Positions 2,119-58,371 of a stretch of 64,000 bases of DNA are shown piece by piece. The translations under genes were made by a program, and so were the position numbers. The stretch covers positions 40,461 to 104,460 of the IMG/VR virus record IMGVR_UViG_3300032038_000033; one strand, 5' to 3'. The DNA is from a virus. Lineage: Duplodnaviria > Caudoviricetes. The notes under the pieces were generated by a model. The model ran no database searches and was not told the DNA's origin. It saw nothing but the letters and a program-made list of their open reading frames with translations. How positions within the stretch are numbered: the stretch's first letter is position 1; every line of letters begins with the position of its first letter.

Positions 2119-3123
2119 ATGCTTATAAGAGGTAAAGGTAATATTGCTTCATATACATTAGACGGAAAAACAAGAAGTTATAGTGACGGAGATTTACGTC
2201 TGGTTAATATGGAAACAGTTCAAATGATTGAGGGTATTAAAGCTTCACAAGGTATATATTATTTAGTAGCTTATGTTAGTACAGGTAGAACGAATTATGG
2301 TCCTATAAGTTTTAATGCAGTACACCCAGCTTCTTATTCATTGCAACCGATTGACCTTAAAAACATTACTGATATTGATAAAAATAATAACTTTGTTAAT
2401 GAATCTAATGGTTATAGAGTTGTTTTGGCGAATAAAGATGATAAATTTTATCGTGCGAGAGATACTAATAATATTTATATTATTAGAAAATATATGAGAC
2501 AGTTATCTCGTAACATGACATATTTTATTTTATCATTTGGTAATAACTTTAAAAATGCATTAACTAAATTATTTTCTTGGAATTGGCTTACAACAGAAAG
2601 TAGTGGCGGTGGTAAATATTCTTATACAGCAAGAACATTAATGCTTCATAAATTAACCAATGAGGAAGATAGTAGATATGATGACTGTTTGGGTGTTAAC
2701 GGTATAGAAATAGTTAAACTCGGTAGATACACTACTAAAGAAAATATAGCAGTAGAAATAAATAAAATACAAAGAGAATATTCTAAGTTTATAAGAGGTA
2801 CTTTATCTTGTTTTGAACCCCCAAAAGTATATCAGTTAGGTGCAGATAGGCTCAAAGCAAGTAACATACAAGCTGGTAATCCGTATCAAGGTGGAGGTGC
2901 ATCTTATAGATATACTACTTCTCCTTATATATCAAATAATAAGGTAATTGCTGACGCTGGCTTATATATAGATAAAAATACTTGGTTAAGGTCAGGTATT
3001 GATTATGATATAAGTTTTCCCACATATAGTTCAAGTAAGAAAACATATAAACTTACTTATAAATTCAAAGGTCAGTATATAGGACTTGGAACCAAAGAAG
3101 TTTATTTTAATTTTACTAAATAA
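2119..3123 (+). CDS. hypothetical protein with C-terminal Ig-like (MBG-type) repeat
   Basis: C-terminal LRSGIDYDISF...FKGQYIG resembles the LxxGxDYxVSY...GKGNYxG repeats of Firmicute surface proteins. Confidence 0.45.
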   Translation: MLIRGKGNIASYTLDGKTRSYSDGDLRLVNMETVQMIEGIKASQGIYYLVAYVSTGRTNYGPISFNAVHPASYSLQPIDLKNITDIDKNNNFVNESNGYRVVLANKDDKFYRARDTNNIYIIRKYMRQLSRNMTYFILSFGNNFKNALTKLFSWNWLTTESSGGGKYSYTARTLMLHKLTNEEDSRYDDCLGVNGIEIVKLGRYTTKENIAVEINKIQREYSKFIRGTLSCFEPPKVYQLGADRLKASNIQAGNPYQGGGASYRYTTSPYISNNKVIADAGLYIDKNTWLRSGIDYDISFPTYSSSKKTYKLTYKFKGQYIGLGTKEVYFNFTK

Positions 3124-3125
3124 CT

Positions 3126-3179
3126 TTAATAGTTTATTTAGATTTTTATTAAACCTTTTTAATATTTATGTGTTATACT
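3126..3179 (+). promoter_or_regulatory. direct-repeat/N31 class promoter
   Basis: TTAATA-N5-TTTAGA, 31 bp, TATACT preceded by TGT. Confidence 0.7.
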
Positions 3180-16979: not shown

Positions 16980-17218
16980 ATGTGTTTAAAAGATTATTTT
17001 GTAAACACCAGAACAAAATCTGCATAACTAATTTTCACGGAGATGTGATACATTGGGTTAGTTATGGAAATAAAATTATAAGAAGTGCTTGGACTTGTAA
17101 AGATTGTGGCAAGATTATTTATAGCGAATACTTAGAGCCAAGCTGTAATGTTATTAACTGGAATTTAACTTGGAATGAAGAAGGACATTTGGTCGATATG
17201 AGAAAGGAAAACAAATGA
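16967..17218 (+). CDS. small Zn-ribbon phage protein
   Basis: RLFCKH...CKDCGK pattern. Confidence 0.55.
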   Translation: MFTMNVFKRLFCKHQNKICITNFHGDVIHWVSYGNKIIRSAWTCKDCGKIIYSEYLEPSCNVINWNLTWNEEGHLVDMRKENK

Positions 17219-17664
17219 TAAAGCCTGCTGTATTGTATGAAGAAGAATTAACTAAAAAATTAAGAGAAACGTGGTATGATGAAAAATATAAATACTATCA
17301 TTTCGGTAATTTCTTTACAGATTTTGATATTGTAAAAGATACATTCAATAATCATCAATTTGTTTCTGTAGATAAGAATGATAATATTTTAGGTTATTTT
17401 AGCTACGGCGTTGATAGAGTAGCTTACAATGCAAATGAATTTGGTATTATAGCATTTGAAAATTATTCTTTGACTTTCGGTAAAGACTTACATCAAGTGT
17501 TTGATGATATTTTTATAAAATATAATCTTAATAAAGTTACTTTTTTCTGTGTTGTTGGAAATCCTATTATGCCCTATTATATAAAGATGATAAATAAGTT
17601 AGGTGGCAGATACATAGGAGAATACAAAAATCACGTTAAATTGATGGACGGCAAAATTTATGAT

Positions 17665-17900
17665 ACCCTCAATAACACATAAAATGTGTTAGTATTATTA
17701 ATATTTTTAATAATACTTAGGGTATTAGCCTAAGTCTTGAAATAAAGACTACGTTATTTAAGAATGATATAGTTACCTTGGAATGTTTAGCCAAGTTCCA
17801 AGCTCTAAGGCTATTGTTTAAACAATCTTATAATTGTAGAGATAGTGATGATAGTAAAAACCTTAAATAACATTGGCGATGGCTACATTACAGTATTTTT
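17665..17900 (+). ncRNA. IscB omegaRNA (HEARO-like) scaffold
   Basis: TAGCCTAAGT...ACTACGTT...GCTCT...AAACA...AACATTGGCGATGG signature directly upstream of iscB. Confidence 0.85.
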
Positions 17901-17938
17901 AGATACTGAATTACTTAATTATAAGTTAGGAAGATTTT

Positions 17939-19186
17939 ATGGTGGTTTATGTTTTAGATATTGAGGGTAAACCTTTAATGCCTACTACAAGATTTGGCAA
18001 AGTAAGAAGAATGTTGAAAAATAAAGAAGCTAAGGTAGTTAAAAGAGAACCTTTTACTATTCAACTTCTTTATAAATCAACTATTTATACACAGCCTATA
18101 AATCTTGGTGTTGATGCTGGTAGTAAGACTATTGGTATTTCTGCTACTACTTCTGATAAAGAATTATTTTGTGCAGAAGTAAAATTAAGAAATGATATAG
18201 TTAATTTAATTGTTACAAAAAGAGAAGCAAGAAGAAATAGACGTAATAGAAAAACAAGATATCGTAAGGCAAGATTTAATAATAGAATTAGTACGAAGAA
18301 AGAAGGTTGGTTAGCTCCTTCTATTCAAAATAAGATTAATTCACATCTTACGATAATTGACAAAATAACAAAAATATTGCCGATTACAAATATTATAGTT
18401 GAAGTAGCTTCATTTGATATTCAGAAAATTAAAAATTCTAACATTCAAAGTAAAGAATATCAAGAAGGTGAACAACTTAGTTTTTGGAATGTTCGGGAAT
18501 ATGTTTTGTTTCGTGATAAGCATATCTGTCAATGTTGTAAAGGTAAATCAAAAGATAAGATACTTAATGTTCATCATATTGAAAGTAGAAAAACTGGTGG
18601 AAATGCCCCAAACAATTTAATTACTTTATGCGAAACTTGTCATACTAATTATCATAAAGGAAAAATTAATTTACCTAAGAATATAAAGCGTGGTATAAGT
18701 TTTAAAGACGCTACTTTTATGGGAATTATGCGTTGGGCTTTCTATAATAAATTAAAAGAAATTTATACAAATATAAAAATGACTTTTGGCTATATTACTA
18801 AAAATATAAGAATTAATAATAATTTGCCAAAAGAACATTATATTGATGCAAGATGTATAAGCGGAAATCCATTAGCTAAATCATTAGGAATTTGTTATAA
18901 ATATAAAAAAGTTAGATGTCATAATAGACAAATACATAAATTTGTTCCTAACAAGAAAGGTATAAGACAAGCTAATCAAGCATCTTATAAAGTATTTGGT
19001 TTTAGACTTAATGATAAAGTTTTATATAAAGGTCAAGTTTGTTTTATTAATGGTAGAAGACAAAGTGGTTATTTTAGTTTAAGAGATATTGATAACAATA
19101 AGATTGGAAATGATAATGTTTCTCATAAAAAGTTAAAATTTTTAGAACACAAAAAATCTTTACTTTGTCAATCTATTGTAATTTAA
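17939..19186 (+). CDS. iscB: RNA-guided endonuclease IscB
   Basis: PLMP, RuvC-I GVDAG, Arg-rich bridge helix, RuvC-II VEVASFD, HNH (CQCC..VHHI..NLITLCETCH), RuvC-III HYIDA. Confidence 0.95.
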   Translation: MVVYVLDIEGKPLMPTTRFGKVRRMLKNKEAKVVKREPFTIQLLYKSTIYTQPINLGVDAGSKTIGISATTSDKELFCAEVKLRNDIVNLIVTKREARRNRRNRKTRYRKARFNNRISTKKEGWLAPSIQNKINSHLTIIDKITKILPITNIIVEVASFDIQKIKNSNIQSKEYQEGEQLSFWNVREYVLFRDKHICQCCKGKSKDKILNVHHIESRKTGGNAPNNLITLCETCHTNYHKGKINLPKNIKRGISFKDATFMGIMRWAFYNKLKEIYTNIKMTFGYITKNIRINNNLPKEHYIDARCISGNPLAKSLGICYKYKKVRCHNRQIHKFVPNKKGIRQANQASYKVFGFRLNDKVLYKGQVCFINGRRQSGYFSLRDIDNNKIGNDNVSHKKLKFLEHKKSLLCQSIVI

Positions 19187-19429
19187 TATTTGTTAAAATT
19201 TATATTAATTATATTAGAAGGTGAATAAAAATGTGTACAATGTAGCTTTATTTGAATTGCTTAAAGAAGATTATCTTAAAAATAAGAAGATTATCGTAAA
19301 AATCCCCGTTTGTAAATAAATTAGCATTTTTAAAATATTACTATAAAAATAATAGTTTAAAACCTATTGTACATAGATTATAAAATAGTAGTTGTGATAA
19401 CTACTAATATTACATTTAAAGATTTCAAT

Positions 19430-50872: not shown

Positions 50873-51208
50873 ATGAGACACATTGAAGGAATTAAATATG
50901 AGTATTTTATTGTTTGTAGAATAAATTGTAAATATAAGTTTTTGTCCATAGCAAATAAAGACAATACAACATATACTCCAGGTCAATATTTCTTTGGAAA
51001 TAATTATAATGAAGTTTTGGTTTTTAATACATCTGAAGAAGCAAATAATTTTAAAATAACAAATGATGGAGTTTTACAGTACACTCGAATTATTCTTGAA
51101 AAAGAAGGTTTTGGTGTAGGTGCATTTGAAATTGTTTCAGTTCCTCGTAAGGAATTGTTTGAATTGGAAAACTATATGTCAACTACTCACGAGGCTAAAG
51201 CCTTGTAG
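50873..51208 (+). CDS. hypothetical protein whose last codons derive from the IscB element
   Basis: Native end ENY-ILKEIGKND* reconstructed from 52791-52818. Confidence 0.6.
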   Translation: MRHIEGIKYEYFIVCRINCKYKFLSIANKDNTTYTPGQYFFGNNYNEVLVFNTSEEANNFKITNDGVLQYTRIILEKEGFGVGAFEIVSVPRKELFELENYMSTTHEAKAL

Positions 51209-51440
51209 CTTGTAATAGGCTCAAATTGACTACCTTTAGTTCTATTTAGAACTACATTACTTTCGTTATTACACCTACAAATGATTCCCAAGTTTGTAGC
51301 AACTGTGAAGGCTCTGTAAACAGTTCTGTGGAGTAGGAACAGTCAACCTTATGTGTTCGATTACGACAAGCGATTGTAATATTAGGGAAGGGAAACAAAC
51401 TTTCATTTAGAAAGGGGTGCTACTTGCGAGTTGGCACTAA
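51178..51440 (+). ncRNA. IscB omegaRNA scaffold
   Basis: GTCAA..TTGAC, ACTAC, CACC..TG..CCCAAGT, AAACAG..CAGTC, ATTAGGGAAGGG signature. Confidence 0.85.
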
Positions 51441-51452
51441 AAGGTATTACTT

Positions 51453-52733
51453 ATGAACAAAGGAAATAGAGTTTTTGTACTCAATATGAGAGGTAAATCT
51501 CTTATGCCTTGCACTCAAAGAAAAGCCAGAATACTTCTAAAAAAAGGAAAGGCAATTATCAAAAAGTATAATCCATTTACAATTCAGTTGACTTATGTAA
51601 CTGGTGAAGCAAAACAAGATTGTAATATTGGCGTAGATACTGGTGCAAAGCATATAGGTATTGCTATTACTTCTGGAGATAAAGTGCTTTATAAAGCAGA
51701 AATAGAATTAAGACAAGATATTAAGTCAAATCTTGACACAAAACGAATTTACCGTAGAAGTAGAAGAAATCGTAAAACAAGATACCGTAAACCACGTTTT
51801 CTTAATCGTAAAAGAACAGATAAATGGTTGCCTCCAAGTCTACAAACAAGAATTAACCATACATTCCGTTGGATAGATATATTTAATACTCTCTTACCTA
51901 ATGCTATTTTACATATAGAAGTGGGTAAATTTGACACAGCAAAGATGATAAATCCTGAGATAAATGGTGTAGACTATCAACAGGGGCAAACATATGGTTT
52001 CTTTGATGAAAGATATTATGTATTTGCAAGAGATAATTATACTTGTCAAGTATGCAAGTGTAAAAATAAAATACTACGAACACATCATATAATTTATCGT
52101 AGTAATGGTGGTACTAATAGAGTAAATAATTTAATTACAGTTTGTACAGATTGTCATACATCGGAGAATCATAAAAAAGGTGGTATTTTATATAAATGGC
52201 AAAAAGAACATAAAAAAGTAAAACAATACAAAGAACCACCATTTATGAATATACTTCGTAAAAGAATATTTACTCAATATCCGTCAGCAGTTATAACTTA
52301 TGGTTCAGAAACAACGCCAAAACGAAAGCAAATGCAATTAGATAAGACACATTATAATGACGCTATTGTTATAAGTGGGATAAACACTATAAAAGAATGT
52401 CCTAATGAGTGGTTACTTATAAAGCAATTTCGTAAAAAGAAGCGTTCATTACACGAAGCAACTGCTCGTAAAGGTAGAAAAGAACCAAATAGAACACAGA
52501 AACGAAATAGTAAAAATACACCTTATTATAAAGGCTTCTATTTGAATGATAGAGTGTTTACATTAGGAAAAGTAGGATATATAACAGGATTTACAAGTGG
52601 TGGTGTATATATAAAAAATCAAAAAGACGAATACATAACATTACCTAACAAAACATATAAACAAGTAGGAATTGCTAATATAAGATTGATAAATCATAAC
52701 AATAATTGGCAATATTTTAGTCAAGTTGGGTAA
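51453..52733 (+). CDS. iscB: RNA-guided endonuclease IscB
   Basis: SLMPC, GVDTG, bridge helix, IEVGKFD, HNH (CQVC..THHI..NLITVCTDCH), HYNDA. Confidence 0.95.
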   Translation: MNKGNRVFVLNMRGKSLMPCTQRKARILLKKGKAIIKKYNPFTIQLTYVTGEAKQDCNIGVDTGAKHIGIAITSGDKVLYKAEIELRQDIKSNLDTKRIYRRSRRNRKTRYRKPRFLNRKRTDKWLPPSLQTRINHTFRWIDIFNTLLPNAILHIEVGKFDTAKMINPEINGVDYQQGQTYGFFDERYYVFARDNYTCQVCKCKNKILRTHHIIYRSNGGTNRVNNLITVCTDCHTSENHKKGGILYKWQKEHKKVKQYKEPPFMNILRKRIFTQYPSAVITYGSETTPKRKQMQLDKTHYNDAIVISGINTIKECPNEWLLIKQFRKKKRSLHEATARKGRKEPNRTQKRNSKNTPYYKGFYLNDRVFTLGKVGYITGFTSGGVYIKNQKDEYITLPNKTYKQVGIANIRLINHNNNWQYFSQVG

Positions 52734-53163
52734 AATCATTGGCAATTCATCCCACGAACCTAAAGGTTTGGAGATTTCTTGCCAGAACATTTTAAAGGAG
52801 ATTGGGAAAAATGATTGAAAACAAGGTAGAATTTGTAAAGAAGTTTGAGGCACTTTTAAAGGAAACAACATCTTTTGAAGATTTACACAGGCTCGATTAT
52901 ATAAAGGAAGATATAGAAATTCTTGTTATTACTTATAAGGATGGTAGTCAGAAGAAACTTAATATTAACAATGATACTTGTTTTGGTATTATTGCAGACT
53001 TTTCTAATAAGGTTGATAGATGTAAATATATAGCTCTTGAAGATAGAATTACTGAATTTTTACCGAAAAGAAATACTCCAACATTTGACAAATTAATTAC
53101 AAATGGTTTAGGTGCAGTCGCTTCTACAATAGCTAACTATAATATATAAAGGAAGAATTAGCT

Positions 53164-54746: not shown

Positions 54747-55649
54747 ATGAACAATGTATTAGGTAGATATGTAAATGGTAATTATACAGTTACTATATAT
54801 AATGACGGTACAAAGATTAGAGAAAACGATTTAGATAATTTAACACCTACCTTTGCTGAAAACTGTGATGTTAAAATTACAGATAAGTGTGACGGCGGTT
54901 GTGATTTTTGTTATGAAAATTGTACGCCATACGGAGAACACGCTAATTTATCTAAATATAATTTCTTATATAATCTTCATCCATTTACTGAATTAGCTCT
55001 TAATGGTAATGATTTAAGTCATCCACAACTTTTATATTTCTTAAAAATGCTAAAAGAACAAGATGTTATAGCTAATATGACAGTTAATCAGAAACATTTT
55101 ATGTACTATTATAATTATATTAAATCTCTAATCGACAATAATCTTATAAAAGGTCTTGGTATATCATTAAGAAATATAAAAGAAGAAAACTTTATCGAAA
55201 GAGTTAAAACAATACCTAATGCTGTTATACATACTATTGCAGGTATTACTACCTTAGAAGAATATGATTTCCTCGCTCAAAACAAGTGTAAAATACTTAT
55301 TCTTGGATATAAAACAAGAGGCCGAGGTATAGAGTTTAAACAGAAATATGATAAAGAAATAATTGAAAATATATATGGTTTGCATAAGCATTTACCAGCT
55401 TTACTTGGTTTAGCTAATCTTGTAAGTTTTGATAATCTTGCTATAGAACAGTTAAATATAAAGTCTATGCTTACAGAAGAACAATGGCAAAATTTTTATA
55501 TGGGTGATGACGGACAATATACATTCTATATTGATTTAGTTAAAGGTACTTTTAGTCGTAATTCTGTAAGTGATATAAGACATGAAATAGGGAGTAAAAC
55601 TATTGATGAAATGTTTAAGATTATTCAGACAGAAGCGAAGGGTGAATAA
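54747..55649 (+). CDS. radical SAM protein
   Basis: CDGGCDFC (CxxxCxxC); no C-terminal SPASM cysteines. Confidence 0.88.
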   Translation: MNNVLGRYVNGNYTVTIYNDGTKIRENDLDNLTPTFAENCDVKITDKCDGGCDFCYENCTPYGEHANLSKYNFLYNLHPFTELALNGNDLSHPQLLYFLKMLKEQDVIANMTVNQKHFMYYYNYIKSLIDNNLIKGLGISLRNIKEENFIERVKTIPNAVIHTIAGITTLEEYDFLAQNKCKILILGYKTRGRGIEFKQKYDKEIIENIYGLHKHLPALLGLANLVSFDNLAIEQLNIKSMLTEEQWQNFYMGDDGQYTFYIDLVKGTFSRNSVSDIRHEIGSKTIDEMFKIIQTEAKGE

Positions 55650-55819
55650 CAATAGAGCTATTATACACCCAGATGTGTAAACATTAATAAATAAATATTA
55701 AAAATTTTGTTAAAAATTACTATTTACAAATTAAAATTTTTGTGTTATACTTATGTTAATATAATAATTATTAAAAATTTAGTTATTATAAGTATAATTT
55801 TATAAAAGGATTGATTTGT

Positions 55820-56431
55820 ATGAAAACTAAAGATGTATTAAGAGTTTTAGGTATTACCCGTCCTACATTAACTAAATATGTTAAAAATGGAACTATAGGT
55901 ATTACTGAATTAGCTAATGGTAGATATGATTATAACGAAGATGATGTTTATAAATTTTTAAATAAAGATTGTAAACGTAAAACAGTTATATATGCCAGAG
56001 TTTCTACTAAAAAACAAAAGAAAGACCTTGAAAATCAAATAGAAATGTTAAAGCAATTTTGTTTTATGAATGGATATACATTAAGCGGTATCTATTCTGA
56101 TATTGCAAGTGGTATTTCTTTTGAAAATAGAAAAGAATTTTTTACTTTACTTGATGAAGTTATTGCAGGTAAAGTCGATAAAGTTATCATTACTTACAAA
56201 GATAGACTTTCTCGTGTTGGATTTGAATTATTTAAACATTTATTTTTAAGATTTAATACTCAAATTATTGTACTTTCTGAAATCGGCAATACTAAATTAG
56301 ATTCAGAAGAAATATTTGAAGAGATTATAAGTCTTTTACATTGTTATTCAATGAAGTTATATTCAAAGCGAAATAGAGCTAAGATACAAGAGATTATAAC
56401 TAATTCAGAAGAAAGTGATACAAATGAGTAA
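55820..56431 (+). CDS. tnpA: IS607 serine recombinase TnpA
   Basis: N-terminal MerR-like HTH, YARVST, SDIASG, DRLSRVG. Confidence 0.93.
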   Translation: MKTKDVLRVLGITRPTLTKYVKNGTIGITELANGRYDYNEDDVYKFLNKDCKRKTVIYARVSTKKQKKDLENQIEMLKQFCFMNGYTLSGIYSDIASGISFENRKEFFTLLDEVIAGKVDKVIITYKDRLSRVGFELFKHLFLRFNTQIIVLSEIGNTKLDSEEIFEEIISLLHCYSMKLYSKRNRAKIQEIITNSEESDTNE

Positions 56432-57917
56432 TACTGAAAATAATTATATTGTGGAATTACCTTTATTTGTAGAATCCTGGCAAGCAGATATAATTGATAC
56501 ACGATTAGAGATTGGCAGAAAAATTTATAATGCTTTATTAAACATAGTAGTAAAGCGTTACAATGAACTTACTAAAACTAAGTTATATAGAAATCTTAAA
56601 GAACAGTTAGTTTCAGCTCTTAAAATAAAGAATAAAGAAGTTAGTAAAGATATAGGCAAACAATTAAGTGATTTAGAAAAACAATATAAACTCACTAAAT
56701 TTGATATAATAAATGATGTTAAAGAAATGCAACATCATTTTAAATGTCATATACATTCAAGAGTAGCACAAGAAATAGCTAAAAATGTTTATACTGCTTT
56801 GTATTCTGTACTTTATAAAAATGGTAAAGAATTTCATTTTAAGAAGTTTGGAACATTTAATAGTTTGCAAAGTAATGAAATTAATCAGGCTATTATTTTT
56901 AATACAGATTATGTTAGTTGGACAGGATTACAATTAGCTGTAAAATATCCTAATAACATTAAATTTCAACAATATCTTCAATATAATTTATTTGATAATA
57001 TAGATAAATTACGTTATTGTGCTATTATACGGAAATATATAAGAGGTAAACGAAGATACTATGTACAACTTACATTTAGAGGTAATATAAAGCATACAAA
57101 ACGTAAATTAGGTTTTGGTAGAGTAGGTTTGGATATAGGTACATCTACATTAGCAATTTCGTCTAATAATGCTGTTGATTTAATTGAATTAGCAGACAAA
57201 GTTCAGAATGTTGAAAAAGATATTAAAAGACTTCAACGTAAGATGGATAGAAGTAGAAGAGCTAATAATCCTAATAAATACAATGCTGATGGAACATATA
57301 AAAAGAATAATAAAGATAAGTGGAAAAATTCAAACCGTTATATTAAATATAGAAATGAACTTAGAGAATTATTCAGAAAACAGTCTGTTATCCGTAAATT
57401 ACAACATAATCAATTAAGTAATTATATTATATCATTAGGAAATGAATTTTTTGTAGAGACTATGAATTTCAAAGGATTACAAAAAAGAAGTAAGAAAACT
57501 GAAAAGAAAGCTAATGGTAGATATAAATGTAAAAAACGTTATGGTAAATCTTTAGGTAATCGTGCTCCGTCTATGTTGCTTACATTACTTAGTAATAAAT
57601 TAAAACATCTAAATAAAGAACTTGTAAAAATTAATACTCAACAATGTAAAGCAAGTCAATTTAATCATATTACAGGTGAATATAAAAAGAAATCTTTAGG
57701 TCAACGCTGGAATATGATTAATGATAGATTAGTTCAGAGAGACTTGTATTCAGCATTTCTAATATCTAATGTAAATAATACTTTAGATTCATTTAATATT
57801 TCATTATGTAATGAAAAATTTGATAATTTCTTATTATTACACGATAATAAAATAAATGAATTAAAAGTACAAAAGAATTTAACCAATAAATCATTTCTAT
57901 CTTGTATGGGAATATAA
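56424..57917 (+). CDS. tnpB: IS607-associated TnpB
   Basis: RuvC GLDIG, FVETMNF, QRDLYSA; RLQRKMDRSRR helix. Confidence 0.92.
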   Translation: MSNTENNYIVELPLFVESWQADIIDTRLEIGRKIYNALLNIVVKRYNELTKTKLYRNLKEQLVSALKIKNKEVSKDIGKQLSDLEKQYKLTKFDIINDVKEMQHHFKCHIHSRVAQEIAKNVYTALYSVLYKNGKEFHFKKFGTFNSLQSNEINQAIIFNTDYVSWTGLQLAVKYPNNIKFQQYLQYNLFDNIDKLRYCAIIRKYIRGKRRYYVQLTFRGNIKHTKRKLGFGRVGLDIGTSTLAISSNNAVDLIELADKVQNVEKDIKRLQRKMDRSRRANNPNKYNADGTYKKNNKDKWKNSNRYIKYRNELRELFRKQSVIRKLQHNQLSNYIISLGNEFFVETMNFKGLQKRSKKTEKKANGRYKCKKRYGKSLGNRAPSMLLTLLSNKLKHLNKELVKINTQQCKASQFNHITGEYKKKSLGQRWNMINDRLVQRDLYSAFLISNVNNTLDSFNISLCNEKFDNFLLLHDNKINELKVQKNLTNKSFLSCMGI

Positions 57918-58371
57918 TTAATTTTAATCTGTTTTGTACGAACAGTAAACACTTAATAATTTATGAGATTATTAACATTTTGTAAATAAAGTGTAGAAGA
58001 TTTACAGAATTTAACTCAGCCTTTAAATCTTTCGAGGTTTATTGAAAAGTTATTAGTATGTAAATATGATTTTTGTTAAAGATTTTAATACTTATTTTAA
58101 ATTTTTAATAGAAATTAGTACAATGATATGGTTTGAATGAGGTGTTTTATTTGGAAGACTATACTAATATGATGTCCAAAATTACTTCTGAAATCTCACT
58201 CGAAGTAACAGAAGAAATAGATAAATTTATTTTTAAAACAATACAAGATTGGATATATAGAGAACAAACAATACTCATACCTAAACAACTTATAATCACA
58301 GCCTTGCAAACATTTAAAGCTGAACATCCAGAGCAATATAAGTTATTATTAAATTTAAAGGAGAATTAATT

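Follow-up and report, generated by a model that had tools for sequence, protein, structure and literature searches.

The IscB element at positions 17663-19241 of the window, the 64 kb with a GC content of 27% that form the 3' part of a 104-kb IMG/VR virus record, ends in a sequence of the IS607 right-end type. Judged by its sequence, the element is best explained as a non-autonomous transposon that would be mobilised in trans by a serine TnpA, to which we assign a probability of roughly 0.55. This reading is favoured because of the similarity of the two right ends, the eight precise insertion sites, the AT at the junctions, the missing distal hairpin, the presence of an IS607 end motif, and because a Y1 TnpA was not found. 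All genes of the window are located on the plus strand and a tRNA cluster is present, with ten tRNA genes between 7001 and 9906 (Rfam). The window encodes two IscB proteins (17939-19186 and 51453-52733), both containing the RRXRR and HNH domains and both with a HEARO/omega-RNA on the 5' side of the gene. The respective elements are called IscB-1 and IscB-2 here (Table 1). In addition, there is one IS607-type unit composed of tnpA (55820-56431) and tnpB (56424-57917). Nucleotide searches of the phage collection did not reveal close relatives of either the IscB element or the IS607 element, and a scan of viral_contigs with TnpB peptides gave no match.

Table 1. Features of the two IscB elements and of the IS607 element, in positions of the window. 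The caret marks the junction.
Feature	Position	Strand	Description
GNAT-like gene, 5' part	17215..17664	+	split by the insertion, 3' part from 19242; ORF and gapless alignment with homologues L036-L039 after removing 1577 nt
Putative guide-encoding flank	17647..17662	+	16 nt directly 5' of the omega-RNA scaffold; guide position after Meers et al. (10.1101/2023.03.14.532601)
IscB-1 left end, omega-RNA 5' domain	17663..17727	+	AT at 17663-64; closing stem ATACCCT/AGGGTAT; two AT-rich hairpins
Sites resembling the IS607 end motif in left-end hairpin B	17696..17712	.	PWM from IS607 ends: 11.1 on +, 11.4 on -
Omega-RNA (HEARO, RF02033) core	17722..17891	+	Rfam 103 bits, E 3.6e-20
iscB gene of IscB-1	17939..19186	+	415 aa; Pfam RRXRR 2.7e-63, HNH 5.3e-08
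IS607-type right end of IscB-1	19181..19241	+	no hairpin; tip GTACA^AT
IS607 end motif in the IscB-1 right end	19191..19202	+	score 12.6; 51 nt inward of the tip, matching position and + strand of the motif in the IS607 right end
AT core with the flank bases that follow, ATGTAG	19240..19245	+	presumed IscB TAM of the empty site, by comparison with the canonical target N^ATGA (PMC4810608)
IscB-2, second, canonical IscB element	51178..52810	+	GTCAA start; GC-rich distal hairpin; abuts ATGA; HEARO 114 bits
IS607 left end	55673..55819	+	AT at 55673-74; end motifs at 55696, 55708, and 55769; tnpA promoter
tnpA, IS607-type serine recombinase	55820..56431	+	MerR-like HTH followed by resolvase domain; Pfam Resolvase 1.8e-21, MerR_1 5e-4
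tnpB	56424..57917	+	497 aa; overlaps tnpA; 3188 homologues, some with PF01385 OrfB_IS605
IS607 right end and TnpB omega-RNA region	57918..58124	+	end motifs at 58074 (+) and 58099 (-); tip GTACA^AT

The similarity of the two right ends was first noticed in a sequence-only reading of the window, which had reported an ungapped match of 45 out of 62 positions between 19181-19242 and 58064-58125, and a TGTTAAA placed 44 nt before GTACAAT in both ends. Both observations are correct (19191/19235 and 58074/58118). If either of the 62-nt stretches is slid over both strands of the window (about 128,000 placements), 20.7 positions agree on average (sd 3.7). The best unrelated placement of the IscB stretch has 37 identities, that of the IS607 stretch 40. 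The match is also significant against composition-matched shuffles, none of which reached 45 in 100,000 trials (maximum 42). In a comparison aligned at the tip, the IscB clade shares 34-45 of its last 61 positions with five IS607 right ends, the lowest values coming from copies with an internal indel. The IS607 right ends share 43-55 of 61 positions among themselves, and the background maximum is 40 in 127,260 placements. The sequence comparison thus supports that the right end of the IscB clade belongs to the IS607 right-end family, where it is placed at the edge of the family's own spread. A scan of viral_contigs with a degenerate right-end pattern yielded candidates with at most 37 of 61 identities, which were rejected as chance matches.

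The boundaries of IscB-1 (17663/5-19239/41) follow from the combination of the gapless GNAT alignment and the independent copies. The split GNAT gene had earlier been regarded as proof of the AT^G junction. The alignment to the GNAT homologues does require an insert of 1577 nt but not its exact position, since a common shift of both ends preserves the reading frame. Only by adding the seven other independent insertions is the junction fixed to within the ambiguity of the AT, 17663-17665 to 19239-19241. An empty site at the DNA level was not found for IscB-1; the GNAT homologues are only about 42% identical. Homologues of the IscB-1 protein with 89-94% and 74% identity were obtained by protein search and are sited elsewhere. 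Seven such further copies or relatives (74-94% protein identity) and the window copy add up to eight independent insertion sites (window copy, L154/155, L156, L157-159, L162, L160, L161, and L261), and the similarity to the IS607 right end is seen across this family. All seven readable left junctions have AT as first bases, and the flanks are unrelated right up to this AT. The conserved sequence opens with AT followed by ACCCT, or by ATCCAC in L161. The right tips are GTACA^AT or a one-base variant in seven of the eight insertions and GTAATA^AT in L261, which is apparently a decaying copy. In each of the seven insertions for which both junctions can be read, both have AT, and so does the right junction of L160. 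The right flank continues after the AT with GT in seven of the eight insertions and with AT in L160. Because the eight independent sites share the AT left starts and the GTACA^AT-type tips, the element has moved in its present form. Damage to the right end is found in L157, which has a 9-nt deletion, and in L261, in which tip and stem are degraded.

Ahead of the junction AT^G, the right ends of the IscB clade also contain an RBS-like GAAGGTG or AAGGAGG and a start in frame (window 19220-19245; L161:3290-3320). In L161, a gene of the Phage_VG64 family starts with the junction ATG, and the orphan GNAT C-terminus of the window shares its reading frame with a GTG at 19233. A TTATG motif on the left, 3' of which both IscB elements would insert, was considered as the target but discarded, since the left flanks of the relatives are unconstrained and the constant ATG is on the distal side, as published.

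Y1 enzymes require a subterminal hairpin at both ends of the element. The distal end of IscB-1 does not form a single-stranded DNA hairpin on either strand (-3.3/-2.6 kcal/mol, which is worse than shuffles with z values of +1.3/+1.4), and not a single consensus pair was found across seven aligned copies of the IscB clade. Because a distal hairpin is neither predicted nor present as consensus, the end required by a Y1 enzyme is absent in IscB-1. A GC-rich hairpin after the stop codon, followed by ATG(A/G), is present in at least 14 of 20 distinct IscB relatives and in IscB-2, whose distal hairpin folds at -10.3 kcal/mol. The published target of ISC elements is N^ATGA, with the insertion 5' of it (PMC4810608). 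The right flank of IscB-1, ATGT at seven of the eight sites and ATAT at one, fits such an ATG-type target and an AT core equally well. The canonical phage-borne IscB elements (L004-L017, L025, window 52790-52814) abut an ATG(A/G) distally, with which the following phage gene often starts, and in one canonical IscB relative the distal end is directly followed by a tRNA-like sequence (L018:4240-4330 and L019).

The earlier claim that IscB-1 lacks both the GTCAA start and the terminal hairpins holds for the hairpins of the iscB-distal end. The left end, however, has hairpins and is a canonical, although AT-rich, omega-RNA 5' domain. It starts with ATACCCT instead of the canonical GTCA(A). An alignment with 27 viral relatives and a consensus fold resulted in 27 pairs with wobble or compensatory changes, in which the closing stem surrounds the two hairpins. 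The IscB-1 left end corresponds, in an AT-rich version, to the canonical GTCAA...TTGAC stem and its two GC-rich hairpins (HEARO positions 1-50). The first base of the element is therefore also that of the omega-RNA scaffold, and the unconstrained 5' flank is the predicted guide, in agreement with Meers et al. (10.1101/2023.03.14.532601). Compared with the left end of the IS607 element there is no significant overall similarity (P 0.13-0.36) and only one motif-sized match. Positions 17673-17713 of the left end can also be aligned to the start of the TnpB omega-RNA region of the IS607 element (57947-57989) with a local score of 33, a value that was reached by 1 of 500 shuffles and by none of 500 GC-matched segments.

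The IS607 element itself (55673-58124) is represented by copies in L032 (TnpB 94% identical), L033/34 (73%), L035 (71%), L178 (TnpA 90%), and L258/259 and L260 (at least 90%); the tnpA product is 90-96% identical in L032-L035 and L178. That 58064-58125 is an IS607 end, as proposed from the window alone, is borne out by the conservation, which stops exactly after GTACAAT, at 58124, in all copies whose right end can be read (L032, L033/34, L035, L178, and L260), and the right boundary GTACA^AT is common to six copies. The left boundary is less sharp. The identity of the closest copies collapses just upstream of 55675, where AT is found in six of seven copies and GT in L258. Based on the sequence, the left boundary is probably at 55673 but it is not fully fixed and could alternatively lie about 21 nt further left (about 55652). 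An empty site was not found for IS607 either; relatives of its upstream gene have an identity of about 54% and do not carry the genes downstream. All seven IS607 copies are located 4-8 nt downstream of a phage -10-like box, with left flanks that end in (A)AAAT, or GT in the case of L258 (window 55640-55674). This shared context could represent the TnpB TAM, a target preference, or tolerated intergenic sites. L260:1100-2960 is a tnpA-less deletion derivative of IS607 (TnpB at least 90% identical), whose right end is 10 bp shorter and has an AAGGAG 8 nt before the junction ATG. The tnpA promoter (55723-55760) has an extended -10 as in a repeated class of phage promoters.

The right end of the IscB element contains a motif of the IS607 ends, and a weaker copy is present in the left end. 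Of four exact matches to the 11-mer AAATTTTTAAT in the 64 kb, three are within the IS607 ends. Copies of T[AG]TTAAA[AG]ATTT are conserved in the ends of four IS607 relatives, at about +24, +36, and +96 on the left and at -51 and -30/-26 on the right. With a PWM built from the IS607-end sites, seven of the eight IscB-clade right ends score between 12.6 and 14.5 at -51 on the plus strand (12.6 in the window type, 14.5 in L160 and L161), the L261 end with its damaged stem and tip being below 9, and all seven readable left ends have scores of 10.6-12.5 at +34/+39. A score of at least 10.5 is found at only 10 other sites in about 60 kb and is reached by 2-4% of GC-matched 75-nt windows. None of 20 other IscB relatives, including AT-rich ones, reaches 10.5 (maximum 8.2), and the motif is absent from IscB-2 (best score -5.5). 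The IscB right end has one strong site (-51) compared to two in IS607, and the IscB left end has one compared to two or three. The left-end motif is part of an AT-rich hairpin, in which such words arise easily, and its sequence differs between the subclades. By analogy to the published architecture of IS607 ends, the motif may bind TnpA. The IS607 TnpA depends on short repeated motifs and on a 2-bp core that matches, and about 40 bp on the left and 60 bp on the right are sufficient as ends (10.1101/2023.11.20.567912; PMC6188088). About 17 phage promoter sites of the window (e.g. 6807 and 31774) have an upstream box that resembles the IS607 end motif.

Concerning the enzyme, an intact serine TnpA is encoded 36 kb from IscB-1 in the same record, and none within 17663-19241. 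A Y1 TnpA (PF01797) had no match in the 104-kb record, which is itself only about 58% complete. A serine recombinase within 2-3 kb of iscB was not found at any of 36 iscB loci, and none of 80 metagenome TnpA loci carries iscB as cargo. In L204, iscB and a serine tnpA are only 1.8 kb apart, but these are two separate elements and not a linked unit. IscB elements are nearly always non-autonomous with only about 1.5% having a tnpA nearby (10.1101/2023.03.14.532601), and iscB, unlike tnpB, has been reported not to be found with IS607 serine recombinases (10.1101/2023.03.14.532601; PMC10691335). A 2026 review places IscB under IS605 only (PMC13565253).

If the IscB element is indeed moved by a serine TnpA, the following scenario could be imagined. 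In a phage-borne IscB/omega-RNA clade, about 60 bp from the right end of an IS607-family element would have taken the place of the distal hairpin of the Y1 type. An AT-core IS607 in the same phage would supply the TnpA, here the product of 55820-56431, which would bind to the T[AG]TTAAA[AG]ATTT-type motifs near the IscB ends and recombine at the AT of both junctions, so that a double-stranded circle would be excised and inserted at other AT sites. The left end would remain an ordinary omega-RNA 5' domain, and the 5' flank would therefore still supply the guide. The AT and the next bases of the flank (ATGT) would constitute the IscB TAM in the emptied site, and by cutting empty alleles IscB would restore the element. 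Of these steps, we infer the binding of TnpA to the motif, its action on the IscB ends, the circle intermediate, and the TAM. With respect to the origin, it is conceivable, although we would put it at slightly below even odds, that the IscB lineage switched its partner from a Y1 to a serine recombinase when an IS607 right end was grafted onto an omega-RNA left end. Such a switch would have been enabled by an unusual IS607 family with an AT core, a dinucleotide with which the ancestral IscB TAM (ATG...) also begins. A single AT would then act in three ways, as the core for recombination, within the TnpB TAM on one side, and within the IscB TAM on the other.

Several findings speak against mobilisation by a serine TnpA. 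The left end is dissimilar overall to the IS607 left end, and an iscB adjoining a serine recombinase was not found at the 36 iscB and 80 TnpA loci. A Y1 enzyme may be encoded by the host, and only about 58% of the phage genome is covered by the record. AT is palindromic and common in DNA of 27% GC, and the known core of IS607 is GG. The AT at the left is also the base of the omega-RNA stem, and that at the right also fits N^ATGA. Furthermore, the flank preferences differ, with AA^AT at the left of IS607 in six of seven copies and AT^GT at the right of IscB in seven of eight. The latter difference could be explained by selection through the TAMs of the two nucleases.

The most serious competitor, which we nevertheless consider unlikely, is an ordinary ISC/IS605-type element that is moved by a Y1 (HUH) TnpA of the host or of another phage and whose AT-rich distal end is still recognised. 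The IS607-like stretch would then be the relic of an old nested insertion, e.g. of a canonical ISC that landed at the ATGA 62-59 nt from the IS607 right tip and subsequently lost its hairpin. An ATGA is indeed present in the IS607 right end at the point where the similarity sets in, the left end of IscB-1 has the hairpins of a canonical omega-RNA/IS605 end, the element is located directly 5' of ATG(T) similar to the published ISC target N^ATGA (PMC4810608), and a missing tnpA is the rule for IscB elements, which are nearly always non-autonomous (10.1101/2023.03.14.532601). However, the distal hairpin that the canonical relatives have is neither predicted nor conserved on either strand, the hairpin-less form has moved to eight sites with a precise tip in common with IS607, and the record, which is about 58% complete, did not reveal a Y1 TnpA.

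It is rather improbable that the element is a chimeric relic that does not transpose anymore and has been spread by IscB-guided cutting of empty alleles and recombination, the similarity of the right end being without present function. IscB and the omega-RNA look intact, restorative as well as canonical homing by OMEGA nucleases has been documented (PMC13565253), and the 9-nt deletion in L157 and the degraded tip and stem of L261 indicate that the right end is not tightly constrained everywhere. Homing, however, copies into the homologous site only, while the eight sites found here have unrelated flanks and base-precise ends, and relatives with 74-94% protein identity have retained the tip as well as the -51 motif. 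That the two ends are alike through a common outward regulatory module, a phage-type promoter or an RBS serving the downstream phage genes, and not through a common recombinase, is hardly credible: the IS607 right end does share 40 of 62 positions with a phage promoter region at 3105 (3105-3166), the upstream box of the phage promoters resembles the end motif, the tip TACAAT is -10-like, and RBS-like GAAGGTG or AAGGAGG are present in the IscB-clade ends and an RBS also in the IS607 end of L260, but by a consensus scan the IscB end has no plus-strand promoter and the IS607 end only a 9/12 match, which is not better than in shuffles, none of 17 phage promoters has more than 37 of 62 positions in common with the IscB end, different phages carry a conserved IS607 right end as a part of the element, and no RBS is present in the IS607 end of the window.

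Compared to known systems, IscB-1 combines features that have been described for different transposons. Like the ISC elements (PMC4810608; Meers et al. 2023) it consists of one iscB gene after a HEARO/omega-RNA, probably takes its guide from the 5' flank, has no tnpA, does not generate a target duplication, and is located directly 5' of an ATG-type motif. In contrast to ISC elements, the distal subterminal hairpin, which defines Y1 substrates, is replaced by an AT-rich 60-bp end of the IS607 type, and the 5' terminus is ATACCCT and not GTCA. With the IS607 family (IS607, IS1535, and CboIStron; PMC6188088, 10.1101/2023.11.20.567912) it shares the absence of inverted repeats and of a duplication, the same dinucleotide at both junctions, and putative short repeated subterminal motifs within about 60 bp of the right end, and its last 61 nt are within the divergence of the family. 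Unlike in this family, its cargo is IscB with a 5' omega-RNA instead of TnpB with a 3' omega-RNA, tnpA is missing in cis, AT takes the place of the published GG core, and the left end is an omega-RNA domain. IscB-1 could thus be regarded as a member of the IS607 family only in the sense of a non-autonomous derivative. A further parallel are the tnpA-less IS607 derivatives (L260; the stand-alone TnpB elements, PMC10691335), which are also non-autonomous, carry a nuclease, retain IS607 ends, and would need a TnpA in trans. However, L260 is a simple internal deletion of one IS607, while IscB-1 combines parts of two transposon superfamilies.

IscB is an RNA-guided nuclease and the ancestor of Cas9, and has so far been treated as a passenger of IS200/IS605. 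If the IscB element is mobilised by a serine TnpA, both OMEGA nucleases can ride either transposition chemistry, and the logic of guide and TAM would have been re-fitted to a new recombinase through a common core dinucleotide. It would also mean that IS607 elements are not limited to GG cores. As one phage carries the presumed recombinase together with its own element and the possible hitch-hiker, a compact and directly testable system is available, and an IscB with an AT-rich TAM and a serine transposase with an AT core would be added to the candidate tools.
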